From the NCBI GenBank assembly GCA_937982505.1, contig CALJLV010000086.1, forward strand, positions 10,990-74,989: a DNA stretch of 64,000 bases, given 5' to 3'. A model generated the notes under the pieces. That model was not told the DNA's origin. It made no database searches and saw only the letters and a program-made list of their open reading frames with translations. The position numbers and the translations under genes are program-made. Below are positions 5 to 57,712 of this stretch, piece by piece. This stretch comes from an uncultured Desulfobacteraceae bacterium. GTDB lineage: Bacteria > Desulfobacterota > Desulfobacteria > Desulfobacterales > UBA2174. The stretch's first letter is position 1, and every line of letters starts with the position of its first letter.

Positions 5-1183
5 GTGCCGGTATCGGCCGGGATGGCGACCGGAACGGCCATCCTGATGCACGACGGACTGCCCGCGGACGGGTTTTATGCCCGGGAAATCGGTCTTTAC
101 GCCGAGGACCCGGACATTGGGGCGATCCTGTTCGCCGTTGCCTATGCGGGCGACGAGGCAAGCTGGATACCGGCCATCACCGATGTCGCGTCCTACCAGC
201 ACGTCTACAGCATCGCCATCGCCATCGGCAACGCAACTACCCTGACGGTCCAGGTGGATCCGAGCACGGTAACGGTGTCAATGGCCCAGTTTTCGGCCCA
301 CGAGGGCCTCGAACTGGATCCGACCAGCTCCGACACGAGCAAAAACAAGCATCTTTCCAACGCTCAGGCCAAGGGTTGGGAAACCAGCATAGGGGCCAAT
401 GCCAGCGCCATTTCGGCGCATTCGTCACAGACTAACCCCCACGGGTCCACCGTCTCGGCGGCGGCCGGTCGCATGATACTCCGGGACGGGTTCGGGCGGG
501 CGAAAATTGCGGCGCCGGCAGAAAGTGACGATATCGCCCGGAAAGCCGATGTGGACGCCGAAGCCGCTTCCCGGGCCTCCGCCGATTCGAGCCATGCCCT
601 GTTGACCAATCCGCACGGCGCAACGTCCGCGGCGACCCCGATCCGGATCATGATGCGGGACACCCACGGGCGGGCCAAGGTGGCGGCCCCTGCATCCAGC
701 GATGACATCGCCCGGAAGGCCGATGTGGACGCCGCCATTGCCGCCGGCCAGGTGATTGCGTTTGCCGGGTCTGCCCCGCCGTCCGGGTTTTTGGAATGCA
801 ACGGGGCGGCGGTCAGTCGAAGCACCTACTCCGTCCTGTTTGCCGCCATCGGGACCGCCTACGGGCACGGGAACGGTTCCACGACGTTCAACCTGCCCGA
901 TCTTCGGGGCGAGTTCATCCGGGGGTGGGACCACGGGCGAGGGGTGGATTCGGGCCGCGGGCTGGGAACGGCTCAGGGCGCAACGATGATTGCCGAGCGA
1001 ATGGGCAATCACGCGCCATGGCCAACACAGGGGGCCATCGGCATTCACGGCTCAGATGGGGAAGATTACGACGACACCTATCATGTGGCGACGAACGCGG
1101 CCCAAGGGACGATTTCCATCGGCGTCGACTTCAAATTTGTTCGCCCGCGCAACGTGGCGATGACCTACTGTATCCGGTACTAG
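5..1183 (+). CDS. tail fibre protein with C-terminal tail-collar domain; 5' end probably cut by the window edge
   Basis: Frame is open to nt 2. Two tandem ~57-aa shaft repeats (NPHG.T..A...I..RD..GRAK.AAP...DDIARKADVD, nt ~430-735). The C-terminus FLECNGAAVSRSTYSVLFAAIGTAYG...TFNLPDLRGEFIRGWDHGRG is the classic phage tail-collar fibre motif. Confidence 0.85.
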   Translation: MPVSAGMATGTAILMHDGLPADGFYAREIGLYAEDPDIGAILFAVAYAGDEASWIPAITDVASYQHVYSIAIAIGNATTLTVQVDPSTVTVSMAQFSAHEGLELDPTSSDTSKNKHLSNAQAKGWETSIGANASAISAHSSQTNPHGSTVSAAAGRMILRDGFGRAKIAAPAESDDIARKADVDAEAASRASADSSHALLTNPHGATSAATPIRIMMRDTHGRAKVAAPASSDDIARKADVDAAIAAGQVIAFAGSAPPSGFLECNGAAVSRSTYSVLFAAIGTAYGHGNGSTTFNLPDLRGEFIRGWDHGRGVDSGRGLGTAQGATMIAERMGNHAPWPTQGAIGIHGSDGEDYDDTYHVATNAAQGTISIGVDFKFVRPRNVAMTYCIRY

Positions 1184-43713: not shown

Positions 43714-45356
43714 GGCACCGCCACGGCCGGAAACCGCCGCCGGTTCCCACGTCGCGGGCCGGCCCCGTCCAGCCGGTAGGTGTTTTTGACGTGCTCAAGG
43801 CACTGAGCCAGTTCGTACCGGTTCATTTCTCCCCGGGGCTTGCCCATGGCCTCCCGGATCTCGGCATTGATCCGCTGGGGCTTGTAGAAAAATGACGAGG
43901 AAAAGGCCCGAACATGGGATTCGATCGCGTCTCTGAGTTCTGCCTCGATTTCCGACGGGGTCTTAGGGATCGGGGCCGGGATGATCTTAGCAACCTTGCC
44001 GCCTCCCAACGTGTATTGCCGACCGGATGTCATTTTGGACCCGAGCGGCGTAATCCCGTGTCGGTTCCCGCCGTTGCCGAACTTTTCGTCGAACAAATCG
44101 CCCTGTTTGACCTGGCCCCGTTCCCGCAAAAACGGGAGTTGTTCCGACTGGATCGACGCGACAACGGAGCGCATCAGCGGGTCATCCGGGGCGAAGACGT
44201 GGGCGATCTGGTGCTCGTATTCGATTTCGTTTTGGACCCGCACAGACCTGGAAAGCATCTGGATCAGCCACCCCAAGGCCCGGATGTGGGTCAGCGAACA
44301 GATATGGGTGATGGGCTTGACGCTCATGCCCTCGTGGGCCATGGCGATGCTGACCAAAACATCAATTTTACAGGCGCGAAATTGCTTGATTGCCCGCTGG
44401 GCCGCCTCGGATTCATGGGACGTTGCGATGTCGGCCGAGGCCACCTTGCGGCGCACATATTTCAGGGCCGCGTCGGCATGCTTTTTCCCGGCCGTCACCA
44501 CCAATAGCCGAGACCAAGGGTTGAAATCCCTCCGTGCCTGCCAGTGCTCGATTGCCTGGTCAAGTAGCTGTTGACCGTACCCGGTATCGATGGCGGTAAA
44601 GATCGCCTTCGGGGCGTCGGAATTCCTAACGGATGCCAGGGAGTCGTAGTTGACGATATCGCCCGATTCGTCCTTCCATGACACCTGCGCGTCCCGGAAA
44701 TGGAATTTGATCGGGATGATGGCCTTTTCCTCAAGGGCATCCTTGCGAGAATAGTTGATCACGGCGGTATCACCGGAGCCATCGAGCATCGGTTCGCCGC
44801 CGGCGTAGCGGATGAACGCAATCGGCTGGCCATCGGCACGCATCAATGTTCCGGTCATCAGCACCAGGACCGCGGCCTGATCGACGATCGGTTGCAATCT
44901 CTGGTGCCACAACCCGTCTTTTTCGACATGATGGAATTCGTCCAGCACGACGATGTAGCGGCGTTGAGACACCTCGTTCAGAACCGTTCGTTTGTCGTCG
45001 ATGGCGATGGCCTGATAGGTGGTGACAAAGCCCTGTGTGCCGCGGCATGGATCGACGTCGTTCGTGCTGGCCCGGACCGTGGCGGTATGGCCGAACATGG
45101 TCCGGAAAAACGGGTCGATAAAGTCCTGTTCGGCCTGGTGCTGCAACGACTTGCGGGGCACGATCCATAGCAGGCGCTCCGCGTGGGTCGGGATCAGCTT
45201 GGAGGCGATGGCCGGCAAAGAGCTTTTCCCGGCCCCAGGGCAGGCGTTAACAATGATGGTGCGCGTTTCGCCGCCGGAACGGATCGAGTCGACAACGGAC
45301 ATCATTTCGCGTTGGTGTTTTCTTGGACTACCGGATGTCATTCCAGATATCTCCAT
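43698..45356 (-). CDS. SF2 DEAD/DEAH-box helicase
   Basis: NACPGAGKSS (Walker A), VLDEFHHV (DExH), LVLMTGT, helicase C-terminal region. Start at ATG 45356 or 45341. Confidence 0.8.
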   Translation of the reverse strand: MEISGMTSGSPRKHQREMMSVVDSIRSGGETRTIIVNACPGAGKSSLPAIASKLIPTHAERLLWIVPRKSLQHQAEQDFIDPFFRTMFGHTATVRASTNDVDPCRGTQGFVTTYQAIAIDDKRTVLNEVSQRRYIVVLDEFHHVEKDGLWHQRLQPIVDQAAVLVLMTGTLMRADGQPIAFIRYAGGEPMLDGSGDTAVINYSRKDALEEKAIIPIKFHFRDAQVSWKDESGDIVNYDSLASVRNSDAPKAIFTAIDTGYGQQLLDQAIEHWQARRDFNPWSRLLVVTAGKKHADAALKYVRRKVASADIATSHESEAAQRAIKQFRACKIDVLVSIAMAHEGMSVKPITHICSLTHIRALGWLIQMLSRSVRVQNEIEYEHQIAHVFAPDDPLMRSVVASIQSEQLPFLRERGQVKQGDLFDEKFGNGGNRHGITPLGSKMTSGRQYTLGGGKVAKIIPAPIPKTPSEIEAELRDAIESHVRAFSSSFFYKPQRINAEIREAMGKPRGEMNRYELAQCLEHVKNTYRLDGAGPRRGNRRRFPAVAVPWGVR

Positions 45357-45936
45357 TTCTGATCTCTGAAATTGTTGATCGGGAAACACCGTAGCGGCGA
45401 CCAATTTCAGTTTCAGAAAGACTTGTTTTCGACAAATAAAACCTGATCCCCATCACCTTCGCCGGGGTGAGTTTCGACGTGCTCCTGTTTCGGACGTTCT
45501 CTCTCGTTGTTACCCACCTGCAATTTTTCGGGCAATAATCGCAGTCGTTGTCGATTCTATCGATCTCAAGGCCACCGGCGTATCCGTTTTCGATCGCCCA
45601 TTGTCGGAACACAGAAAAATCGTTTGCCCATTCGTCACAAATCGTAATGCCCCGGCCGCCATACCTTCTTCGGTATTTCGAGTTGTGGTTAAGACACCGA
45701 TCTTTCATGCCGGTCCATATGCGGTAGAGCCTTGTTCCTTTGCCGTTATGTTTGGTCCGAACGCAACCGCATGAGGTTGAAAGGCCTCGGGTGAGGTTCG
45801 AGGTTGTGCATTTAGCAATTTTTCCGCAATCGCATTGGCAAAGCCACAAGACCTTTTTGCCCAGCCTCTCGTCGAGCCTTTCTTTGACTTTAAGCATTCC
45901 GAATCTCATGCCGGTCAAATTTAATGCTGCTACCAT
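45328..45936 (-). CDS. HNH endonuclease with C-terminal HTH
   Basis: FGMLKV...WLCQCDCG...SCGC, then YGGRGITICDEW...LEIDRIDNDCDYCPKNCRWVT..EN. AT-richer than the flanks. Confidence 0.75.
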   Translation of the reverse strand: MVAALNLTGMRFGMLKVKERLDERLGKKVLWLCQCDCGKIAKCTTSNLTRGLSTSCGCVRTKHNGKGTRLYRIWTGMKDRCLNHNSKYRRRYGGRGITICDEWANDFSVFRQWAIENGYAGGLEIDRIDNDCDYCPKNCRWVTTRENVRNRSTSKLTPAKVMGIRFYLSKTSLSETEIGRRYGVSRSTISEIRNGDIWNDIR

Positions 45937-47003: not shown

Positions 47004-47161
47004 ATCGATCCTTTGGAGAGCATGGTTCTACCGGGCAAGTGCGGGCTTTCGGGATGTGCGTTGGCAAACGCTTTCATCACCGCCAGTACCCATGAGATTT
47101 CACCGCAAACTTTACAGCGCATGACCTGCCCCTCGGTGTCGATTACGGTGTTTTTTCTCAT
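47000..47161 (-). CDS. small protein
   Basis: ATG 47161 in ATGA coupling with the SbcC-like stop. Confidence 0.35.
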   Translation of the reverse strand: MRKNTVIDTEGQVMRCKVCGEISWVLAVMKAFANAHPESPHLPGRTMLSKGSI

Positions 47162-49695
47162 TCGACGTGAATCCCTCCGTTGAAAATGATCTGGTGATCG
47201 GCAAGCCCGACGCACTCGGGCTTGTGGCTGATGAAGAAGATCGAGCCAAACCCGCCGAGTCGCAGGAACTCGCGGTACATGGCGATGAATGACCGCGCCG
47301 CCTCCGGATCCAGGGCGCCGTCTTCTTCGTCGGCGAAAGCGGTTCGGAAATCACGGCCGGATTTCTGTTTGGCCACCAGGGTCAGGGCCAGGCGTAGGGC
47401 CTTGAGGTCCCACGTCTTTTCGCCGCCGGAAAACTGGCCGATGGCTTCGCTCGATCCATCCTCCCGTGTCACCACCGGCAAAAGCACTTCCCGGCCGTCG
47501 TCGTCTTGCGTCCGCAACTCGATGCTGTGGGCCGGCCCGTAGGTGGCCGTCAAAAGGTCGTTCGCGTACCGGGCGATCAGCGGCGCCGTGGCGTCAATCT
47601 CTAGGGCCCGCAGACCGTTGGCGCCGGTCGCGGTTTTGAGGTAGGCCCATTCGGCGGCCTGGGTCGAAAGACCGGCCAGTCGGGTCCGCATGGCCCCGAT
47701 CTTCTCCCGGACCGATGCAACATGCCTTTCGTCCGCCTCGATCCGGGCCAAGGCGGCGGTCTGGCCCATGATCTGCTTGGTCAGGTCATCGATGGTCCGC
47801 CGGTGCTCTGCGATTTCGGCCTCAAGCGCGCCAACCTGAATCGTCGCCTCGTTGGCGGCCATCGCTTTCGCCTGGGCCTCGTTGAGTCGGCTTTCGGCGG
47901 CGTCCAGGTCCTTTTGGATCTCGGCAAGCTCCTCTTTTCCGGACTCCCTCAAGGCCTCAAGGCTCACGTTGGCCCGTTCGACCGCCTCTTTGGCCGGGCC
48001 GATCTGCTCACGGGCGCCCCGGATCTCGTCGATCCGCTCGGCCGCGGCCTCATGCCTGGCGGCCAACTCTCTGTTGAGGCGGATCCGCTCGGTGAGGTCG
48101 TCGACGTCCGCCTGGATTTTATCTTTTCGGGCCTGGGCCTCGGCCACCTCGTTTTCCATCGTCTGCTTGACGTTCTGCAAACCGGCCTTGACTTCCCGGC
48201 CGCGCTCGACGTTTGCGGCCAGGGCCTGCTTGGCCGCGGCAAGCTCGGCGTCGTTTTGTTTCGCCTCGGCTTCGAGGCGCGTTATTTCGGTCACGATTCG
48301 GGTGTCCTCGGCCTTCAACGCCTCTTTTTTTGCCGGCAGGGCCTCGGCGGCGTCCAGGGCGGACCGGATGAAAGCGCAGTCCTCTGAGTTGCACCGGTAC
48401 GACCGGCCGCAGACCCCCCCGACCGGCTCGTTGATGGTGACCGTGCCCCGCTTTTCCAGGTCGGCGGCCTGGCGTTCGAGACCGTCGATCTCGGCCCTGA
48501 GACGCGGCGCCTGGGATCCGGCCAGCAGGTTTCCCCGGGCCGTCGCGATCTGGTCGACCTTGCGGCCCAACTCGTTGACCCTGGCAGCAAGCGGCTCGTA
48601 CTCGGCCCGGAACGATTCCAGGCTCTTTTCCAACTCGGCGATGTGCCGGCCGCGGCACGCCCGGATGTCGTCGATCACCGCATCGGCCGACCGGATCCCG
48701 CGCAGCGCGAAATCCCGCTCCTGTTCCATCGCGACGATGGCGGCGCGCAGGGCCTTTGCCTGCTCGGCCGCATGCTCGACCTCGGAGGCCGTCGCCAGAA
48801 TAGCGGTCAGGCGGTCCCATTCGGCGCCGGCCCGGTCGACGTTGGCCCGGGCATCCGTCACCGCCTGATTGATACCGGCGCGCCGGCGGCCGATTTGAAC
48901 GGTGATTTCGGCGACGCGCACCTTCGCCGCCTCGACCGCCTCGGCCGCCGCCTCGGCCTTCGCCGCATCGGCTTTCGCCGCGTCGAGTAGGCGGACCGTT
49001 CCGTCGAGGGTCCCGTTTGCCAGCCGCCGCTTGAGTTCCAGGGCCTCGATTTCGGATTCGGCGTCCTCACGCCGGGTCGAAAGGGTGATGCTGTCGGAAA
49101 TCGACGCCTCGGCGACCTGGATATCGCGCTCGATGTTTGCGACGGCGCGCATGAACCTGGCCTCGGCGTCCTTGGCGGTCTTTTCCCACCCGAAATACCG
49201 GTCCAGGCGCAAGAACTCGGCCATCAACCGCTTGAAATCGGCCGGCTTGATGTCGGAGAGTTTGGCCGAGCCTTGGGCAGCGAAGACCGAGTTGAAAAAC
49301 AGGTCGGGCGATCCGAGCAAGGCTTCGATGGCCGACGTGAACGACGAGATTTTGCCGTCCACCGTCGGTATCCCGTCCTTCCAAAGATACCCTTCGGACC
49401 GGCCCGACTGGGCATCGATCTTGACCAGGGCACGGTAGTCGTGGCCGTTGAGCCTGAAAGAAAGGTCTTTTTCCGAGTCTCGGAGATAGACGTGGTTCTT
49501 GAGCGCCGGGTTCGGGCGGCTGACCACCTGCGGGAACGGTTGCATTTGTTCCAGAAGGGTCGTCTTGCCGGCGCCGTTGCGGCCGGTCAGGGCCACCAGA
49601 CCATCGATACCGGACAGGTCCAGTTCGATTTGATCGACTCCGAGGCCATGCCGGATCCCCTTGAAGCCTCTGAGACGGATGCCTTGTAATTCCAT
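47158..49695 (-). CDS. sbcC: SbcC/Rad50-like ATPase
   Basis: LTGRNGAGKTTLLE (Walker A), very long coiled coil, FSGGEKT (signature), FADEEDGALD (Walker B/D-loop). Confidence 0.85.
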   Translation of the reverse strand: MELQGIRLRGFKGIRHGLGVDQIELDLSGIDGLVALTGRNGAGKTTLLEQMQPFPQVVSRPNPALKNHVYLRDSEKDLSFRLNGHDYRALVKIDAQSGRSEGYLWKDGIPTVDGKISSFTSAIEALLGSPDLFFNSVFAAQGSAKLSDIKPADFKRLMAEFLRLDRYFGWEKTAKDAEARFMRAVANIERDIQVAEASISDSITLSTRREDAESEIEALELKRRLANGTLDGTVRLLDAAKADAAKAEAAAEAVEAAKVRVAEITVQIGRRRAGINQAVTDARANVDRAGAEWDRLTAILATASEVEHAAEQAKALRAAIVAMEQERDFALRGIRSADAVIDDIRACRGRHIAELEKSLESFRAEYEPLAARVNELGRKVDQIATARGNLLAGSQAPRLRAEIDGLERQAADLEKRGTVTINEPVGGVCGRSYRCNSEDCAFIRSALDAAEALPAKKEALKAEDTRIVTEITRLEAEAKQNDAELAAAKQALAANVERGREVKAGLQNVKQTMENEVAEAQARKDKIQADVDDLTERIRLNRELAARHEAAAERIDEIRGAREQIGPAKEAVERANVSLEALRESGKEELAEIQKDLDAAESRLNEAQAKAMAANEATIQVGALEAEIAEHRRTIDDLTKQIMGQTAALARIEADERHVASVREKIGAMRTRLAGLSTQAAEWAYLKTATGANGLRALEIDATAPLIARYANDLLTATYGPAHSIELRTQDDDGREVLLPVVTREDGSSEAIGQFSGGEKTWDLKALRLALTLVAKQKSGRDFRTAFADEEDGALDPEAARSFIAMYREFLRLGGFGSIFFISHKPECVGLADHQIIFNGGIHVE

Positions 49696-49705
49696 GGGTG
49701 CCTCC

Positions 49706-49972
49706 TTATCGAATCGCCGCCAGAAGCCAGCGGTTAAGAATTTTGGTCGCGCCCTCGATGTAGCCTCGGCACCAGGTCAGGCAAAGTGCGGCCTGGCGGC
49801 CGTCGGCGCGAAAGAGTTCATCGAGTTCTTGCGCTAGCCAGCGCCAGTGCTGATTGACGGCGGCCGGGTTCCCGTTGGTGCGGGCGCATTCCATGGCGGA
49901 TTCGGCCGCGATGGAATCGTTGGTTCCGGCCCATTGACCGGAAAGGCGATCTTGAATCTCGAATCGGTTCAC
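49706..49972 (-). CDS. hypothetical protein
   Basis: Lies between the SbcD-like and SbcC-like genes, ATGA-coupled upstream. Confidence 0.5.
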   Translation of the reverse strand: MNRFEIQDRLSGQWAGTNDSIAAESAMECARTNGNPAAVNQHWRWLAQELDELFRADGRQAALCLTWCRGYIEGATKILNRWLLAAIR

Positions 49973-51285
49973 GCCGCCCTCCGATCTTCGTTCGGGACGA
50001 TCCCGTCGGCCTCGGCCTCGACGGCGGCCAGCAGGGATTCCGGGTCGATGTCTTCGAGCGCATCGGCCTTGTCCAGGACCCCGGCCGGAACGAGTTCGCC
50101 GCTCATGGCGGCTCTCTGTTCAATTTTTTCTCGCAACCGCTCGATTTCGAGCATCCGGGCGGCCCGGACGTTGGCGCGGGCAACCCGGGTGCGGACAACC
50201 TCTATCGATTGGGCGCCGGGGAAGACGTCGGGCAGGCCGATTTCCATGTCGTCGAAAATCGCCTCTTCGTCCTGGTAGAATTTGATGGCGACTCGGACCA
50301 TGGCGCCTTCGACCGTGGCCCCTATGGTGTAGGGCGCGCAGGCATCTGCGGCGGCCACTGTGATGGCGGAAACCGGGTTGGCGGGATAGCGAGTAAAATC
50401 GTGAGAAACTATCAATCGGCGGCGGGTCGGGGTCTCGATGAATCGATGGTCCCATGCGCCGGCGTAGTCGCCATCGTCCTTCTTTTCGTGGATGTAGAAC
50501 CCCTTGGCGTCCAACTCCCCCCATGTGTTGATCTGCGGCGATCCGGCGTAGAAGATCGGTGCGGATCCGATCCGCTGGGCCTCGTGGATGTGGCCGAGAC
50601 ATACCAGGTTGGGGTTTCCGGCCATCATCTGGTCGCGGGAAACCTCGATGTCCACCCCGGTCAGCATTTGGGTCGGGGAGATAAAGGCGCCGGTCGTGTT
50701 CCAGTGCCCCACCAGGATGTGGGGCACGTTGCCGATCTCGGCGGCGGACGCGGCCAGACCCAAAAACATGGCGCTCAGGCCCTGAGCGATCAGAGCGTCG
50801 GTCTCTTTGATGTCCGATCCTGGCACCAGTCCGACAAGGTGCTCCTTGGTCGGGGCCGGCACCAGGGACACGACGGCGATGATCGGGGCGGGAGCGCCGC
50901 CGGATGTGACGGCCTCGTACTGCTCGCGGTCCCAAAGATTCCCGTTGCGGGTCAGGACCAGTTGGAGGGGGCCGTCAACGGCGGTCCGGATATGGTTGGC
51001 GGCGCCGATCAGGTCCAGGACCTCGGAGGCCTTCCCGTCGTGACTCCGGGTGCCCATGACCCGGGCCACCGGGGCGACGTCGGCCATCGCCTGCATCCAG
51101 CGGTGAATGTACTTGACGGCCGGAGAGTCGGCCCGGACAAACTGGCTGTGAAAGATGTCGCCGGCATCGATGATCAGGTCGGGGCGTTCGGCCCGGGCCA
51201 CTTCGAGGATGTGGCCGGTGCATTTTTCAATTTCGTCCAGGTCCTCGGCGCGGGCGTGGACGTCGGCGAAGTGGAGAATTCTCAT
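49969..51285 (-). CDS. sbcD: SbcD/Mre11-like nuclease
   Basis: Calcineurin-like phosphoesterase motifs FADVHA, DAGDIFH, GHWN, LGHIH. Confidence 0.85.
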   Translation of the reverse strand: MRILHFADVHARAEDLDEIEKCTGHILEVARAERPDLIIDAGDIFHSQFVRADSPAVKYIHRWMQAMADVAPVARVMGTRSHDGKASEVLDLIGAANHIRTAVDGPLQLVLTRNGNLWDREQYEAVTSGGAPAPIIAVVSLVPAPTKEHLVGLVPGSDIKETDALIAQGLSAMFLGLAASAAEIGNVPHILVGHWNTTGAFISPTQMLTGVDIEVSRDQMMAGNPNLVCLGHIHEAQRIGSAPIFYAGSPQINTWGELDAKGFYIHEKKDDGDYAGAWDHRFIETPTRRRLIVSHDFTRYPANPVSAITVAAADACAPYTIGATVEGAMVRVAIKFYQDEEAIFDDMEIGLPDVFPGAQSIEVVRTRVARANVRAARMLEIERLREKIEQRAAMSGELVPAGVLDKADALEDIDPESLLAAVEAEADGIVPNEDRRAA

Positions 51286-51504: not shown

Positions 51505-52590
51505 TCAAAGTGGAATGTCGTCGGTGGTCGTGTCGGGTTTGGCCAACAGCTTGGGGTAAAAGCCGTTGAGGGCTTTGTCCGAATACTCGTCGAGGGGCTT
51601 TTCGAGCACCCCGGGAAGGCTGACACCCTTGCGGGCCGCCACGATTTCGATGGCCAGTTGCTTTTGACGGCGGCCCAGCGATGCAAACGCGGCGGCCGTC
51701 GTCGGTGGGACGAATTCGGGCGGGACGGGGGCGTCCGCCGGCGGCAGATCGTAGGGGTCGGGGTTTTGAGGATCAACGGGGGGCGGCGGGTTGTCGTAGG
51801 GGTCGACGTCCGCCATCGAAGATTCGCCGATGTCTACCGTGTCGGAGTTCTCGACAGGGGCCGGCAAGAATCCGGCCGCCTGGGGGCCGAAGATCGCCCC
51901 TGCCACCGACTGGATCGAGGCGGCGCGGAGCAACTTGACCGTTTCGGGGTCGGAGTAGTCCGGGGCAACGACGCACCGGACAATTACGAATGGCTTTTTG
52001 AGGGTGTCAATCGAATGGCACCCGCCGAGGCCGAACAGTTTTCGCAACGCAACCGCCTTGGCATCTGACATGCAGAGCTTGAGCCGTTGCTTGCGTCTGG
52101 CCCTGAAGTCCCGATTGACGCAATACTCCGCGTTTTCGCGGCCTCTGTATTGGTCCACCAGGTCGTCGCGCAGAAAATCCAGGTCGAATTCGGCCTGTCC
52201 CATCCAGGCCACGACCTGCCCATACTCCTTTTTAACGAACACCGTCGCCTCACACATGAGGTATGTGGGCGTCGACGTGATGACCCGGGTCTTTTCCGGC
52301 ACCCATCCGGCGCCGGCAGCAACCGCCAGGCGTTCGAGCGGCGCAAGGTGAAGGGCGAAACCCTTGGCGCCCTTCGGCGTGAAAATGTCCGGGCCGTTAT
52401 TGTACTTGTCGGTGGTCGTGTCGAGCCTGACCTCTTCGACGATCAGGCGGTGAAGTTCCGGGAGACCGAACGGATCGCAAAACATGATCATGTTCGCGCC
52501 CTGTCCCTGATAGGCGCGGATCCGCTCGATTTGGGCCGCGTTCGAGCCGGCCCGGGGGATCATTGGGGTTGCTGGTGCGGGGTTTGCCAT
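51505..52590 (-). CDS. first gene of the leftward operon; possible ssDNA-annealing/recombination protein with SSB-like tail
   Basis: GGAGG RBS. Folded N-terminal ~235 aa, Pro-rich linker, C-terminal tip TTDDIPL resembling the SSB tip. Function not recognised. Confidence 0.55.
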   Translation of the reverse strand: MANPAPATPMIPRAGSNAAQIERIRAYQGQGANMIMFCDPFGLPELHRLIVEEVRLDTTTDKYNNGPDIFTPKGAKGFALHLAPLERLAVAAGAGWVPEKTRVITSTPTYLMCEATVFVKKEYGQVVAWMGQAEFDLDFLRDDLVDQYRGRENAEYCVNRDFRARRKQRLKLCMSDAKAVALRKLFGLGGCHSIDTLKKPFVIVRCVVAPDYSDPETVKLLRAASIQSVAGAIFGPQAAGFLPAPVENSDTVDIGESSMADVDPYDNPPPPVDPQNPDPYDLPPADAPVPPEFVPPTTAAAFASLGRRQKQLAIEIVAARKGVSLPGVLEKPLDEYSDKALNGFYPKLLAKPDTTTDDIPL

Positions 52591-53037: not shown

Positions 53038-53289
53038 ATGGAACGATTCGCTTCGTCCAACCAGGCTTTCGCTGTCGGCGCAAGGGGGGCGGACCACAGC
53101 GATTCCTACCCAAACGGGCTATCTTTGGAATACAAGAGAAATTACGGGACTGCCCGGAGGAATATTGACATCTCTGATATCGTGAACAATCCCAACGGCC
53201 TTGGCATCGCTTGCGTTTTTGGTCCTGGCTTCTCTGAAAAGGTCTCCGACTTGCCCTTCGTCAACACTTGTTCGTTCCCTGATGATTGA
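53038..53289 (+). CDS. possible 83-aa ORF or antisense transcript overlapping the 3' end of the ClpP-like gene
   Basis: AAGGAGGG RBS. Upstream TTGACA, 17 nt, TAGGGT (52922-52950). It overlaps 53119-53694 on the other strand, so coding status is doubtful. Confidence 0.3.
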   Translation: MERFASSNQAFAVGARGADHSDSYPNGLSLEYKRNYGTARRNIDISDIVNNPNGLGIACVFGPGFSEKVSDLPFVNTCSFPDD

Positions 53290-53694
53290 TCCTATTCGGC
53301 TTTGGTCCTGAAGAATTGTTTCCAGTCTTTCCCGGATGTTTTTTTCCTCCAGCCGGCACCGCTGATCTACATCGAAGCCAACCCCATGAAACATAAAGGT
53401 GCTGTGGGGGCAGGCATACCTCTGTTCTCCTGCCAAAAAAATCGCATTTCCTATTGAGTCCACATTTCCGACATTGTGAGTGATAAGCCTAAATGGCATC
53501 GCTCTAAGCGAATTATATATCGTTAGACCATGCATGACAGACCCGCCGGGGGTTGAGAGCATTAGATATACTTCATCAATCCCTCTGTTTACCTGTTCCG
53601 CCATAACCGCGATAAGGGTTTCGGTAGTATGGGGAATGATTTCAGCCGAAAACGAAACATATACCGTCATCTGCGACATCCTCCTTTTTGACAC
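53119..53694 (-). CDS. ClpP-family (S14-like) serine protease
   Basis: MLSTPGGSVMHGLTIYNSL..., NVDSIGNAIFLAG, STFMFHG and GIVHDI align with the ClpP motifs INSPGG, AASMG (Ser), MIHQP (His) and LVD (Asp). Confidence 0.75.
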   Translation of the reverse strand: MSKRRMSQMTVYVSFSAEIIPHTTETLIAVMAEQVNRGIDEVYLMLSTPGGSVMHGLTIYNSLRAMPFRLITHNVGNVDSIGNAIFLAGEQRYACPHSTFMFHGVGFDVDQRCRLEEKNIRERLETILQDQSRIGSIIRERTSVDEGQVGDLFREARTKNASDAKAVGIVHDIRDVNIPPGSPVISLVFQR

Positions 53695-54351
53695 TCAGAT
53701 CTTTGCAATTAGCTCCACCACTTTCCCCACCACACAGAAGTCCACCGCACCATCCTTCAGGAATACCATGTCCGGGTATTTGGGGTTCAGGGCCTTGAGG
53801 CGGATCTCGGTACCGTTCTCGTAGTAGATTTTGAACGTCACGTCACCGGCGACCTTTGCCACACAAGGGTCCCCGGTGGACACCCCGATTTCCGGATCGA
53901 CCACGATGATGTCTTCGGCCATATACCTGGGTTCCATGGAGTCCCCTTTTACCCTCAGGGCAAACGCCCTCCAACTCACTTCCCGACGGGCAAACACCGG
54001 CTCATCTTCGCCCGAAACCCCCTCGGGCCAGCAGTCGATGGCCTCGGCCATCTTGCCTGCCGTGACCCATGAAATCACCGGGATGGGACGGCCATGTGAG
54101 GCGCCTGGAACGGGCATAGGGGTTGGATCAATGCTTTGATCGCCTCCAAGGTTGTTCGCAAAAAACTCTGCATGTGTGACGCCGAGGGCCTTAATGATCT
54201 TCTCTTGAGTGTCATAGCCGGGCTTCTTTTTACCTGTAATTATAGAGGAAATCATTCCTTGAGACACGCCCGACAAGTTTGACAGTTTTTCCTGGCTAAG
54301 GCCATCCCGCCTTAAGAAAAACGCCACTCTATCTTTAATTTCGATACCCAT
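53695..54351 (-). CDS. CI/LexA-type repressor (XRE HTH + S24 peptidase)
   Basis: QEKLSNLSGVSQGMISSIITGKKKP HTH. LRVKGDSMEPRY (Ser) and a downstream Lys in the S24 fold. Divergent from the cro-like gene. Confidence 0.88.
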   Translation of the reverse strand: MGIEIKDRVAFFLRRDGLSQEKLSNLSGVSQGMISSIITGKKKPGYDTQEKIIKALGVTHAEFFANNLGGDQSIDPTPMPVPGASHGRPIPVISWVTAGKMAEAIDCWPEGVSGEDEPVFARREVSWRAFALRVKGDSMEPRYMAEDIIVVDPEIGVSTGDPCVAKVAGDVTFKIYYENGTEIRLKALNPKYPDMVFLKDGAVDFCVVGKVVELIAKI

Positions 54352-54376: not shown

Positions 54377-54405
54377 TTGACTTCGAATATTACCGTGGGT
54401 AAAAT
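54377..54405 (+). promoter_or_regulatory. PR-like promoter; the transcript would be essentially leaderless
   Basis: TTGACT (54377-54382), 17 nt spacer, TAAAAT (54400-54405). The ATG at 54412 is 6 nt after the -10. Confidence 0.6.
54386..54402. promoter_or_regulatory. operator OR (AATATTACCGTGGGTAA)
   Basis: 15 of 17 positions identical to 52759-52775. Lies in the PR spacer and -10. Confidence 0.55.
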
Positions 54406-54411
54406 TCCACC

Positions 54412-54639
54412 ATGACCCTAAAAGAATACCTAACAAGAACTGGGCGAAAGCAGGTGGACCTGGCCTCTACTGCGGGGGTTTCTCAGGCCCACATCTCCCA
54501 GATCTGCAAGTTTGGCCGCCGTCCTTCACCCGACGTGGCTGCCAGGATTTCAAGGGCCACCAACGGAGAGGTGGCCGTGCTGGACCTGCTTTATCCGGAC
54601 GGTGTTTTTGAAAACCAACCCGAATCGGTGGCGGCATGA
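54412..54639 (+). CDS. Cro-like HTH regulator
   Basis: QVDLASTAGVSQAHISQICKFGRRPS HTH. First rightward gene opposite the repressor. Confidence 0.75.
   Translation: MTLKEYLTRTGRKQVDLASTAGVSQAHISQICKFGRRPSPDVAARISRATNGEVAVLDLLYPDGVFENQPESVAA
54616..54637 (+). repeat. 22-bp direct repeat R1 (CAACCCGAATCGGTGGCGGCAT)
   Basis: Exact copy. Carries the last codons (QPESVAA), the stop and the next start (ATGA). Confidence 0.9.
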
Positions 54640-54851
54640 AGAAGCCTCGACAAATCAAAATCGCGGAACGGGCCAAGTGCTCACCCCAGGCTCTCTGTAA
54701 CATCCTCCAGGGTCGACGCAGACCATCATGGAATCTGGCCAAACGACTGGCCGCCGCAACCGGGACAGATCCGGTCTTATGGATTGAGGGCGCGCCAGAC
54801 CAGATTCGGCGATGTATCGAGTCGGACCAACCCGAATCGGTGGCGGCATGA
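54636..54851 (+). CDS. second Cro-like HTH protein (paralogue of 54412-54639)
   Basis: AKCSPQALCNILQGRRRPS HTH. Same C-terminal QPESVAA, encoded by the repeat. Confidence 0.65.
   Translation: MKKPRQIKIAERAKCSPQALCNILQGRRRPSWNLAKRLAAATGTDPVLWIEGAPDQIRRCIESDQPESVAA
54828..54849 (+). repeat. 22-bp direct repeat R2
   Basis: Exact copy of R1. Confidence 0.9.
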
Positions 54852-54857
54852 AAAAAA

Positions 54858-55172
54858 TCATAGCTTATGACGGTGACGGTTATTGGGAGACTCCGTTTTG
54901 CATTCGCGCCACTCAATTTCTTCTTGAAAAATTGAGTACTTATAGACCGTTCCGTTCTCGAACACCTCGTCCATACTCGTCAGAAGCGTCTGTAAGGCGC
55001 GCAATTGGTCATCTATTCGCAGCAACAGAACATTGTGTGAAAGCTGCCGAATGCTTTTGTTTTGCTGTGCTAGACCTAAAATTTTTGCAACCGCTGATGC
55101 GTGCCGTGTACTGGCATCAAATCCAGACACGGCGGGGAGATCGATAATGATAAGAATTGAGTATGGTTTCAA
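54858..55172 (-). CDS. small protein, paralogue 1 of a three-member family
   Basis: TTG start 6 nt after GGGGAGGA. Shares MKP..ILI..D.P, [NG].LL.RID and YKYSI[FL] with 55291-55578. Differences in the conserved LLLRID codons are synonymous in this frame. Confidence 0.65.
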   Translation of the reverse strand: MKPYSILIIIDLPAVSGFDASTRHASAVAKILGLAQQNKSIRQLSHNVLLLRIDDQLRALQTLLTSMDEVFENGTVYKYSIFQEEIEWRECKTESPNNRHRHKL

Positions 55173-55191
55173 TTTGTTCCTCCCCTATGCA

Positions 55192-55213
55192 CAACCCGAA
55201 TCGGTGGCGGCAT
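55192..55213 (+). repeat. 22-bp direct repeat R3
   Basis: Exact copy of R1, 20 nt upstream (minus sense) of the paralogue-1 start. Confidence 0.9.
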
Positions 55214-55290
55214 AATGACCCCTGCATCCATATTCAGGTCGTGGCGCGACAGCCAGAGGCGGTATTTCCTCCACAACCCGTGGGACTACA

Positions 55291-55578
55291 TCAACCGCAC
55301 TCCTCCGCCTCGCCCGCCGTTTCTTCGCGCAACTGAAGGTCTTCGTGCAAAATTGAGTACTTATACCGCACGCCGTTTTTCGCGAAAAAGTCAAGCACGG
55401 CGTGCAAACCTGATAATCCTTCATCTATCCGAAGCAGCAAAGCACCTGGTGACAATACTCGATCTGATTTACTTCGGGATAATAGACTGATGATTTTCTC
55501 GGAAAAAGAACGGCGCTCGGCTCCGAAAAAGCTGCAGGACGGGGGATCAAAGGTTATGAGGATGAGGCAAGGTTTCAT
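55291..55578 (-). CDS. small protein, paralogue 2
   Basis: ATG after GAGGT. See 54858-55172. Confidence 0.65.
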   Translation of the reverse strand: MKPCLILITFDPPSCSFFGAERRSFSEKIISLLSRSKSDRVLSPGALLLRIDEGLSGLHAVLDFFAKNGVRYKYSILHEDLQLREETAGEAEECG

Positions 55579-55581
55579 GTT

Positions 55582-55860
55582 CTACCTCGATGTGTTTCGT
55601 GAATCGGTGGCGGCATGATCCAGGAAGAGAACCGTCCCGTTTGCCCGTCGCACCAGGATCTGCACATGGCCTGCATCCATGGCGGGGAGCCGGGACAACG
55701 GAGCTTTGATGGACTCTGTGCGTTTTTTCGAGAGATCGAGATGGATGTACCGGTCCGTATCGCGATAGCAGCCCTTTCCCACGGCGTGGAAGTCTACTCC
55801 TGCTGGAAATGCGGACATTGCGAGATTGTCGTGTTTCATCCCGACCCTATTGGGTGGCAT
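55582..55860 (-). CDS. doubtful ORF between paralogues 2 and 3
   Basis: Open frame only. A plus-strand ORF (55615-) covers the same DNA. No discriminating evidence. Confidence 0.25.
   Translation of the reverse strand: MPPNRVGMKHDNLAMSAFPAGVDFHAVGKGCYRDTDRYIHLDLSKKRTESIKAPLSRLPAMDAGHVQILVRRANGTVLFLDHAATDSRNTSR
55595..55616 (+). repeat. 22-bp direct repeat R4 (degenerate 5' part)
   Basis: TTTCGTGAATCGGTGGCGGCAT. 17 of 22 positions match and the 3' 16 nt are identical. Confidence 0.8.
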
Positions 55861-56152
55861 TGCCGTTCGGGTTTTCCCATCGTTCTTCGCACCATTCTGG
55901 TTTTGCAGGAAAAATTGCGTACTTCAACCGAATTCTTTTTCCGTCTCGGGAGTCGAGGAGGGAAAAGAGCCGCCGCATGGTTCGCATGTGCGTATCTATG
56001 CGAATCTGTAACACATTTGATGCTATGCGCTGAATTCCTTCGATTTTTTCTGTTATACGGGACACCTTTCGGGAAATTTCTCTCCAGCCTTCGGGATGGG
56101 CTGCGAAAGATCCTTCTTCGGGTTCTATGATGATGAGAATCCATGCTTCCAT
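55847..56152 (-). CDS. small protein, paralogue 3
   Basis: MEAWILIIIEPEE..., NVLQIRID, LKYAIF. Start at ATG 56152 or, further upstream, 56188. Confidence 0.6.
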   Translation of the reverse strand: MEAWILIIIEPEEGSFAAHPEGWREISRKVSRITEKIEGIQRIASNVLQIRIDTHMRTMRRLFSLLDSRDGKRIRLKYAIFPAKPEWCEERWENPNGNATQ

Positions 56153-56205
56153 ACGGTCTCTGTTGCCCAAAACATGTGGCCTTGTCAATAAAAGAAAAAC
56201 GTGAA

Positions 56206-56233
56206 GTTATAATGATTTAAAGAAATATTTACA
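56206..56233 (-). promoter_or_regulatory. candidate leftward promoter in an AT-rich divergent gap
   Basis: Minus strand reads TGTAAA, 16 nt spacer, TATAAC. On the plus strand a perfect TATAAT lies at 56208-56213. Both are weakly supported. Confidence 0.3.
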
Positions 56234-56260
56234 GGCTTTTACGAAAAAAGCGAGGTCAGA

Positions 56261-56779
56261 ATGAACCGAAAACCGACCGGGCCGCCACTGGAAACATGGC
56301 AGTTCTATTCGGCAGCCATCTACCACCTCGGTATGTCAACCCTCAACAAGCTGTACTCGGGCCTCAAATCCAAGGCCTGCCCCAAGTGCGGCGCCCTCCT
56401 CGAAGAAAGTCGCGAACGCCAGATACACCGCTGGGCCTCGGACCCGGCGACCACCGCCAGCAACCAGCGTAATCCGGTGGACCGCTACGAGGCTCTGCTC
56501 CGCAGGTTGATGGCCATCGGCGCCGTCGATGTGGCTCAGGCCGTCGTGGCCCGACAGGTCCGAATCGTTCGGCCCCACGACATGCCGGATCCGGGACGCG
56601 ACACCATCGCCGAGGAATGCCTCGATGATCTGGAGGCAATCGTGGATTACCACCGGGTGCTGAGGGACCCGGACGCAAGCCCCGAAGAGGTGGATACAGC
56701 GATGGAAACGGCGATCCGCGAATTACAGCAAAACCGGACCCTCAAGTATCGCAACGAGGGTTGGGCAGGGGGTGTTTGA
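56261..56779 (+). CDS. hypothetical protein
   Basis: GAGGT RBS. CPKCG motif. Confidence 0.55.
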   Translation: MNRKPTGPPLETWQFYSAAIYHLGMSTLNKLYSGLKSKACPKCGALLEESRERQIHRWASDPATTASNQRNPVDRYEALLRRLMAIGAVDVAQAVVARQVRIVRPHDMPDPGRDTIAEECLDDLEAIVDYHRVLRDPDASPEEVDTAMETAIRELQQNRTLKYRNEGWAGGV

Positions 56780-56797
56780 GGCGGACAACACTACTCA

Positions 56798-56830
56798 CTG
56801 AGGGCTCACGGAGTACTCAGTGAGTGCTCA
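56798..56830. repeat. three tandem 11-bp iterons (nnGAGnnCTCA)
   Basis: CTGAGGGCTCA CGGAGTACTCA GTGAGTGCTCA, immediately upstream of the initiator-like gene. Confidence 0.7.
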
Positions 56831-56851
56831 TCTCACCCTCAAGGGGGACTC

Positions 56852-57712
56852 ATGGCGCGCACAAGATCAGTCAAACCGGAGTTCTGGGATGATGAAAAGT
56901 TGAGTGAAATCAGTAGGGATGCCCGGCTTACATTCATCGGGTGCTGGACGCATTCGGATGATTTCGGGGTTGTCAAGGGTCACCCGGTTTGGCTGAAAAA
57001 CAAGATATTTCCGTATGATACGATCACTCCGGCCGTGTTTGGGAAGTGGCTTGAGGAGCTGGAAGGGGTCAAGGCCCTGCTGCCGTTCGAGTACCATGGC
57101 GAAAAATTTTACTTCATTCGGACCTTTTTGAAGCATCAAACCATTAACCGCCCGTCAAAACAGAGAAATCCGGAACCGCCAACAGCACTCACTGAGGGCT
57201 CAGTGAGTGCTCATGGAGTGCTCACGGACGAAACAGAAACAGAAACAGAAACAGAAACAGAAACCAATAACGGATCTTCTAGCGAAGATCCGTCGTCGGA
57301 TTCCCCGCCAAAAATTCCACCATGCCCCCAAAGAGAAATCGTCGAGGCCTACAACCGAATTTGCGTACCTGCTGGATGCCCCTCGATCCAGGTGTGGGAC
57401 AAAGCCTCGGTCGATTGCCTGCGGACCAGGTGGAAGGAAGACCCTGAAAGGCAATCGGTCCAGTGGTGGGAATGGTTATTTACCGATCGGGTAGCGACGT
57501 CGAATTTTCTGACCGGGAAAAGCGAAAAGCAATGGCGCGCAGACCTGCGGTGGATCGTCAAGCCGTCAAATTTCGCCAAGATCATCAACGGCAACTACAT
57601 CAACCGTGAGTTCGACACGGGAAGCAAGCGGACGGATCGAAATCTCCAGGCCGCTAAGGACTTTTTACGGGAGGTTGGGCATGAACGAGCAGGATGCGGG
57701 CAAATTCACTGA
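56852..57712 (+). CDS. replication-initiator/replisome-organiser-like protein
   Basis: N-terminus RSVKPEFWDDEKLSEISRDARLTFIGCWTHSDDFGV is a recurrent phage replication-organiser N-domain. It contains the second iteron cluster and an (ET)n tract. Confidence 0.6.
   Translation: MARTRSVKPEFWDDEKLSEISRDARLTFIGCWTHSDDFGVVKGHPVWLKNKIFPYDTITPAVFGKWLEELEGVKALLPFEYHGEKFYFIRTFLKHQTINRPSKQRNPEPPTALTEGSVSAHGVLTDETETETETETETNNGSSSEDPSSDSPPKIPPCPQREIVEAYNRICVPAGCPSIQVWDKASVDCLRTRWKEDPERQSVQWWEWLFTDRVATSNFLTGKSEKQWRADLRWIVKPSNFAKIINGNYINREFDTGSKRTDRNLQAAKDFLREVGHERAGCGQIH
57192..57224. repeat. second cluster of three 11-bp iterons
   Basis: CTGAGGGCTCA GTGAGTGCTCA TGGAGTGCTCA, inside the initiator-like gene. 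Confidence 0.7.
57230..57264 (+). repeat. (GAAACA)n hexanucleotide microsatellite
   Basis: Five perfect units plus one partial unit, translated as ETETETETETET. Confidence 0.9.

Follow-up and report, generated by a model that had tools for sequence, protein, structure and literature searches.

The modular theory of phage evolution holds that homologous exchange makes use of short conserved stretches located where genes meet, called linker or boundary sequences (summarized in PMC3029335 and PMC2327257), and phage recombination joints have been located in identical blocks down to approximately 16 nt (PMC2327257). In comparison with Brujita, mycobacteriophage Island3 has a small extra gene, gene 68, that shares C-terminal codons and DNA with the gene upstream, and the 67/68 pair has been read as short-repeat recombination adding or deleting one gene (PMC3029335). 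Repeated motifs (PeSL cassettes) flank small nonessential genes in a hyperplastic region of T4-type phages, where recombination between nearby PeSLs deletes, inserts, or replaces genes (PMC2839356, PMC4122927). Short boundary sequences are documented in phage recombination (PMC3029335, PMC2327257, PMC2839356), and the start-associated sequences (SAS) of Cluster K mycobacteriophages are asymmetric, lie in one orientation, contain a Shine-Dalgarno sequence, and overlap stop and start codons (PMC3203893). Here, we report a 22-nt direct repeat with four copies (R1 to R4) within 1 kb of an uncultured temperate phage, just to the right of its immunity switch. Most of that phage is contained in the window, i.e., the whole stretch analyzed (64,000 nt of contig CALJLV010000086.1, positions 10,990 to 74,989), whose own numbering is used throughout. 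The contig measures 83,188 nt, and fragments of the phage were present in metagenome runs from anaerobic digesters, sludge, and sediment. The repeat derives from the 3′ end of the cro-like gene, and it is probably a short-homology boundary or linker joint at which small gene cassettes are added, deleted, and swapped.

The 22-mer CAACCCGAATCGGTGGCGGCAT occurs exactly at positions 54616 to 54637 (R1), 54828 to 54849 (R2), and 55192 to 55213 (R3), always on the plus strand, where no match would be expected by chance (100 shuffles). Its 16-nt 3′ core, GAATCGGTGGCGGCAT, is present a fourth time at 55601 to 55616, within R4 (55595 to 55616, plus strand), which agrees with the 22-mer at 17 of 22 positions. 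Spacings between successive copies are 212, 364, and 403 nt. No further copy of the core with one mismatch or fewer was found in the 64-kb window; the next-best matches have two to three mismatches. The first-pass annotation of this DNA had reported the same four same-strand copies, the intact 3′ 16 nt of the fourth, and the same spacings, all of which were reproduced. It had also described the flanks as unrelated right up to the repeat edges, and this needs softening: R1 and R2 are alike at 29 of 30 nt, a likeness that extends beyond the 22-mer, and the left flanks of R3 and R4 are weakly homologous (71% over 42 nt); the edges are thus sharp without being absolute. On the plus strand, the repeat reads as ..(Q)PESVAA, a stop codon, a GGTGG Shine-Dalgarno sequence, and an ATG that overlaps the stop (as ATGA, or as TAATG at R3). 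Neither strand showed RNA structure in or around the repeat, which folds no better than shuffled sequence (z = −1.4 to +1.3), and no terminator-like site was found between 53600 and 57000. A promoter-like match at R3 is weak (9/12).

The cro-like gene (54412 to 54639, plus strand; 75 amino acids [aa]; Pfam HTH_3, 6.7e-8; PHROG transcriptional repressor) ends in ..NQPESVAA*, and this tail is encoded by R1, which also supplies the GGTGG sequence and, via ATGA, the start of a second helix-turn-helix gene. That gene, HTH2 (54636 to 54851, plus strand; 71 aa; Pfam HTH_31, 1.8e-7), fills cassette 1 between R1 and R2 and ends in ..DQPESVAA*, with its tail and stop codon provided by R2. HTH2 is a diverged cro paralogue: the two proteins share 33% identity along their length but agree in all of their last 7 residues, and 29 of the 30 terminal nucleotides also match. 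Cassette 2 (R2 to R3) holds the leftward gene A (54858 to 55172, minus strand; 104 aa), and cassette 3 (R3 to R4) holds its paralogue B (55291 to 55578, minus strand; 95 aa). Beyond B lie a probable gene X (55582 to 55860, minus strand; 85 to 92 aa) and a third paralogue, C (55847 to 56152, minus strand; 101 aa, or 113 aa from a TTG at 56188), which has an orthologue in a related metagenome locus (L223) and is the ancestral copy, beside a divergent AT-rich promoter region that separates it from a conserved 172-aa gene. Each repeat-bounded unit carries one small gene (HTH2, A, and B), as the first-pass annotation had proposed.

The copies differ in how much of the plus-strand reading is in use. 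R1 is the only one at which all functions clearly operate, and R2 contributes tail and stop to HTH2 but its ATG opens only a shadow open reading frame (ORF) antisense to A. R3 lies in the spacer between B and A, 19 nt upstream of A's TTG start, and R4 lies within the 3′ end of X (which reads through it as ..DHAATDSRNTSR*), 16 to 22 nt upstream of B's ATG. The earlier placement of R3 and R4 about 20 nt upstream of two leftward starts holds; R2 does adjoin A's stop codon, at 8 nt rather than the 7 nt first given. The claim that every copy acts as tail, stop, Shine-Dalgarno sequence, and start is accurate in full for R1 and in its first half for R2, whereas the ORFs opened at R2 to R4 are shadows (see below). 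We infer that, among the copies, only R1 still serves plus-strand translation, along with R2 through its stop codon. On their left, R3 and R4 are flanked by the 5′ leaders of A and B, and these leaders adjoin the repeat at near-equal distance, which fits duplication of a unit made of gene, leader, and repeat.

Two environmental variants have their joints at the repeat. A 262-nt contig from metagenome run X1 fuses position 54833 to position 55601; 18 nt fit both sides, with nothing between them. This contig is an R2 × R4 recombinant without A and B. It has a single-nucleotide polymorphism of its own (55638 C>A), and the same run also holds a contig that crosses R3 with both flanks. Logan contigs are assembled with k = 31; since the 18 shared nt are shorter than these 31-nt assembly words, a repeat-collapse artifact is unlikely. 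A contig from run X5 is identical to the window at 88 of 88 positions through R1, identity stops at 54639, and 50 unrelated nt follow before an A-like paralogue begins (28/31). The two contigs agree in that the sequence relationship breaks in or at the repeat.

Relatives whose Cro is 61 to 77% identical carry the tail once, after cro, and have 0 or 1 leftward paralogue. In L215 and L217 to L222, the orthologue of the 172-aa gene (173 aa) lies approximately 150 nt past cro; in L216, the leftward paralogue is reduced to a remnant; and in L223, cro is followed by 15 nt, one C-like paralogue (607 to 951, minus strand), the promoter region, and the 173-aa gene. The 172-aa gene itself (56261 to 56779, plus strand) is the right anchor of the variable region, with blastn identities of 74 to 79% over 56204 to 56765. 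Homology of the relatives to the window (blastn) ends at approximately 54605 and restarts at approximately 56204 (55994 in L223), so the block from 54606 to 56203, which carries HTH2, A, B, and X, represents a variable slot that has expanded between the conserved cro and 172-aa genes. Within this expansion, each unit has a cro-tail copy at its border. Relatives that have no paralogue retain, after cro, approximately 20 nt resembling a paralogue 3′ end (TCATGCCCGACAATGTTCC / TCATGTCCCACGATGTCCC; seen within 267 to 360 of L215 and 1918 to 2010 of L217), and paralogue loss in those relatives is therefore secondary. Searches of IMG/VR with cro, the repressor, and alignments of the paralogues returned no useful relatives.

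The feature is best read as a clear but ordinary phage linker sequence. It is short and lies at gene borders with unrelated flanks (22/22 in three copies, 16/16 for the core in four), and the breakpoints seen in relatives and variants fall on it (X1, X5, and the block from 54606 to 56203). Among the explanations offered at first pass, that of recombination boundary sites for cassette exchange is supported by the 0 to 1 cassettes of the relatives, the R2-R4 joint, and the X5 break after R1. In such a scheme, small gene cassettes inserted past cro would have acquired copies of the cro-tail junction at their borders, and the copies would then act as short identity patches for unequal exchange by general or phage-encoded homologous recombination. 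With a cassette between two copies, unequal exchange would let the array grow or shrink, and exchange with related phages would swap cassettes (HTH2, A, and B). Recurrent exchange or gene conversion would keep the copies identical while the cassettes diverge; the cassette genes, in two paralogue sets (cro/HTH2 and A/B/C), are far more diverged than the repeat. Homologous recombination acting on 16 to 22 nt of identity would perform the exchange, and the perfect identity of the copies would reflect recent exchange or gene conversion and not a DNA-binding function. Gene content relevant to recombination is found in the early-left operon (45328 to 45936 and 47158 to 51285, minus strand), which encodes an HNH endonuclease, SbcC-like and SbcD-like nuclease subunits (an SbcCD-like nuclease), a helicase, and a single-stranded DNA-binding protein.

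Several points weigh against such a joint. A stretch of 16 to 22 nt is little for efficient homologous recombination to act on, and none of the phage genes was positively identified as encoding a recombinase (single-strand annealing protein). The X1 and X5 joints are each one short metagenome contig of low depth (~3×), and the X1 event may be a deletion or an insertion. Building the array from single-cassette ancestors requires at least one nonhomologous event. Finally, selection for some function, for instance the binding of a protein or a signal for translating the leftward genes, could instead lie behind the perfect identity of the copies.

Protein binding was considered in the form of an operator, or a stoperator-like roadblock at gene boundaries, for Cro, HTH2, or the CI-like repressor, which would block transcription rightward from PR or leftward through C-X-B-A. 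The sites suit this role in being asymmetric, in one orientation, and at gene boundaries beside the immunity switch; two helix-turn-helix genes lie within the array, the repeat contains a CCGA-A-TCGG mini-palindrome, and its identity is far above that of its flanks. However, the inverted repeat common to PL and PR is another sequence, with arms of the AATATTACC..GGTAAAATT type unrelated to R1 to R4, and there are just four copies, all inside 1 kb. The cro homologues from other metagenomes also speak to this point. Their proteins end in ESVAV, ESVAA, DSVAA, or KIAAA, and the DNA of the tail differs at synonymous sites (GAGTCGGTGGCGGTA, GAGTCGGTTGCGGCA, and GACAGCGTAGCGGCA; also GAGTCGGTGGCGGTATAA, GAGTCGGTTGCGGCATAA, and, with AGC in place of TCG for Ser, GACAGCGTAGCGGCATGA). 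Distant relatives keep 11 to 15 of the 16 core positions, with synonymous changes; the close variants X1 and X5 are exact. The ..ESVAA tail is thus an old trait of this cro family that is conserved mainly as protein, and the relatives' use of other codons (Ser TCG versus AGC, Val GTG versus GTA) runs counter to an operator. Given this synonymous variation, the 16 to 22 nt of identity within the present genome is not a family-wide DNA constraint, and since the tail is conserved mainly as protein, the letter-perfect identity of the copies in one genome needs another cause. With PL/PR carrying a different sequence and the relatives conserving protein and not DNA, the proposal of operators for the Cro-like proteins is not supported, and we regard an operator or roadblock role as unlikely.

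The core is also a generic coupling junction at the gene ends of many unrelated phages, a further point against an operator. The 20-mer had one match in IMG/VR, on a contig (L001) where the end of a cro-like gene is overlapped by the start of a GIY-YIG gene; that contig shares nothing else with the window. A degenerate form of the core gave 26 matches in IMG/VR, 16 of them at genuine gene junctions, after portal, methylase, and other genes. Control junctions differing by one codon matched more often, with at least 120 matches for EAVAA (87 at junctions) and 68 for ELVAA (37 at junctions), and across the three patterns scanned, 54 to 73% of matches fell at real gene junctions. This higher frequency with the same junction bias identifies the core (..GGTGGCGGCATGA) as a coupling junction of a generic kind, reached by convergence in GC-rich phage genomes. 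A mobile motif common to unrelated phages was ruled out, the L001 match being convergence and not homology. As a separate observation, exact 18-nt junctions of the form GAR-NNG-GTK-GCG-GYA-TRA (..ExVAA with the stop overlapping ATG) end unrelated phage genes at IMG/VR loci L224 to L436. Caution is warranted more generally, as an exact 18- to 20-nt junction match between unrelated GC-rich phages may be convergence (Shine-Dalgarno sequence, ATGA, and common codons).

The coding strand between R2 and C bears on whether the repeats are translation signals still working at every copy. In a plus-strand version, the Shine-Dalgarno sequence and ATG would restart ribosomes, so that translation of the PR transcript continues across the antisense cassettes and polarity is avoided. 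Each ATG does open a long plus-strand ORF (71 codons at R1, then 99, 91, and 171 codons at R2, R3, and R4), together forming a near-continuous chain from cro to 56130, and GGTGG at proper spacing is a usable Shine-Dalgarno sequence. Nevertheless, a codon model for which 22 long genes from the phage served as the training set scored the R2 ORF as noncoding and gave no clear preference to the R3 and R4 ORFs, whereas A, B, C, and X were coding against all five other frames. For X, the model prefers the minus frame over the plus-strand alternative, which contains a CWKCGHC motif and scores lower. The Shine-Dalgarno sequences of A and B are strong and well spaced (GGGAGG-6-TTG and GAGGT-5-ATG), and substitutions among the three paralogues in the minus frame increase from codon position 2 through position 1 to position 3. 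AlphaFold2 predicted a beta-alpha-beta-beta-alpha-beta fold for A (predicted local distance difference test score, 68.6, from an alignment of only three sequences), and the best Protein Data Bank matches of this model in Foldseek were SP2199 and several Cas2 proteins; A, B, and C are accordingly predicted to have a ferredoxin/Cas2-like fold. An A/B/C profile retrieved 38 full-length remote homologues of approximately 90 aa among 1.8 billion representatives, none of them in a named family.

Shine-Dalgarno sequences, substitution pattern, codon model, predicted fold, and remote homologues together argue that the minus strand codes between R2 and 56150, and they rule out the plus-strand ORFs as real genes. 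Selection holding those ORFs open was likewise ruled out: synonymous resampling of A, B, X, and C yields antisense ORFs this long with P = 0.15 to 0.7, so that the codons of these proteins suffice to account for them. The long plus-strand ORFs opened at R2 to R4 are shadow ORFs. A and B are 43% identical to each other (22 to 43% among A, B, and C), and all three run against the early-right operon; relatives differ in having 0 to 3 of them. Searches of Pfam, PHROGs, NCBIfam, and PADLOC placed none of A, B, C, and X in a known family, X having been without a match in Pfam, PHROG, and NCBIfam.

A minus-strand version of the translation-signal reading concerns the leaders of A and B. There, the repeat begins ATG-CCG-CCA-CCG (MPPPI..) and opens upstream ORFs (uORFs) of 13 to 14 codons at R3 (55173 to 55216, minus strand) and R4 (55579 to 55619, minus strand). 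These uORFs, MPPPIRVVHRGGTN and MPPPIHETHRGRT, would couple or throttle translation of A and B through a polyproline stall, with initiation at ATGCCGCC; judging by the leader sequence, translation of A and B could then depend on elongation factor P. Both uORF stop codons (TGA) overlap the starts of A and B, as TTGA and ATGA. Yet the uORF start at R4 is without a Shine-Dalgarno sequence, and the homology of the two leaders means that the uORFs are not independent cases. The first-pass suggestion of an RNA-level processing or translation signal is true in a trivial sense at R1, where cro and HTH2 are coupled, and is contradicted elsewhere by the lack of RNA structure and by the shadow ORFs. A search for RNA-seq runs returned none. 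Signals working at every copy, on either strand, seem to us improbable.

The conservation of the tail as protein raises a further possibility, that ..ESVAA is an ssrA-like C-terminal degron keeping Cro and HTH2 short-lived, possibly via a repressor-linked ClpP-like protease, with R3 and R4 as inert leftovers of such tails. Ala-Ala C termini are a known class of ClpX recognition signals, and the required ending (a hydrophobic residue followed by Ala-Ala) is present in Cro, HTH2, and most homologues. The homologues reach their ESVAV, ESVAA, DSVAA, and KIAAA endings with differing codons, HTH2 has the same tail, and a ClpP-family protease gene (53119 to 53694, minus strand; Pfam CLP_protease, 2.2e-19) lies directly behind the gene of the CI/LexA-like repressor (53695 to 54351, minus strand; Peptidase_S24 and HTH_3). 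The protease gene starts 1 nt past the repressor stop codon, which makes coexpression with the repressor in lysogens probable; as an observation in its own right, this location for a ClpP-like gene is unusual. A degron would leave the DNA-level identity unexplained, and R3 and R4 as well, where no credible plus-strand gene ends. ExVAA* also turns up frequently where unrelated phage genes meet at ATGA, and the Shine-Dalgarno sequence and codon bias can explain it. On this sequence-based reckoning, a degron as the basis of the repeat seems unlikely.

Direct repeats bounding single-gene units resemble a cassette array, which brings to mind sites of a dedicated site-specific recombinase (integron- or shufflon-like), and a dispersed host element of the repetitive extragenic palindromic (REP) type was weighed with them. 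The repeat has no attC-like imperfect palindrome or stable hairpin, and the region has no recombinase gene; among the profile-scanned genes, no integrase or cas gene lies near the repeats. The earlier exclusion of a CRISPR array, attC sites, and replication iterons also holds, there being no hairpin and the 212- to 403-nt spacings being filled by genes. As for a REP-like element, the exact 22-mer had no match in one genome each of 185,579 species, and 18-mer matches in metagenome and genome collections are scattered, single copy, and unrelated to the repeat locus. Both explanations seem to us very unlikely. A bolder extension of the linker joint is that the slot past cro is maintained as a homology-driven cassette site, a "mini-integron without an integrase," stocking leftward Cas2-fold small genes (possibly for superinfection or antidefense), with the joint kept letter-perfect because it is at once crossover point, coupling junction, and ..ESVAA degron exposing Cro-type regulators to the ClpP-like protease. 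We give this combination only a slim chance.

The remaining setting is that of an early region. A PR-like promoter, TTGACT-17-TAAAAT (54377 to 54405, plus strand; 10/12 match), serves the rightward early operon, and the cro-like mRNA from it is almost leaderless. The first gene of the PL operon (51505 to 52590) belongs to no known family and may encode an annealing protein. To the right of the 172-aa gene lies the replication initiator gene (56852 to 57712; PHROG replication initiation). Clusters of an 11-bp repeat (ACTCACTGAGGGCTCA type) occur at 56786 to 57270, just before and within the initiator gene, and are followed by a (GAAACA)n microsatellite that codes for a (TE)n run; clusters and microsatellite are likely the origin region.

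The locus is a natural example of phage early regions gaining and losing small genes, with the process caught in the two environmental variants. Clear cases of the old linker-sequence idea are few, and this one lends it support. The locus also flags both a cro tail conserved as protein and an uncharacterized family of approximately 100 aa, with a predicted ferredoxin/Cas2 fold, multiplying at the slot. Like the linker sequences of the modular theory, the repeat is a short conserved border sequence with unrelated flanks and mosaic breakpoints, overlapping a stop codon and translation start region. Unlike them, it bounds a tandem array with four copies in 1 kb, its patch of identity is only 16 to 22 nt, and exchange can be intragenomic (unequal) besides occurring between phages. 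The closest published parallel is Island3 67/68, which has the same geometry as cro-R1-HTH2-R2; Island3, however, shares approximately 50 bp (18 residues) in two copies, whereas here 22 to 30 bp (7 residues) are shared in four, two of which adjoin opposite-strand genes. With PeSL cassettes, the locus has in common gene turnover by recombination between nearby short repeats, but a PeSL is an intergenic strong sigma-70 promoter with a terminator hairpin, and the present repeat is neither and is largely coding. SAS and the stoperators of Cluster A mycobacteriophages are likewise asymmetric, one-orientation repeats over stop and start codons in the nonstructural half of the genome. They number 10 to 30 copies genome-wide, in contrast to four local ones here; each SAS precedes a real gene, whereas only R1 precedes a real plus-strand gene; and stoperators match the operator of their repressor, whereas this repeat differs from the PL/PR operator and is absent elsewhere in the 64 kb.

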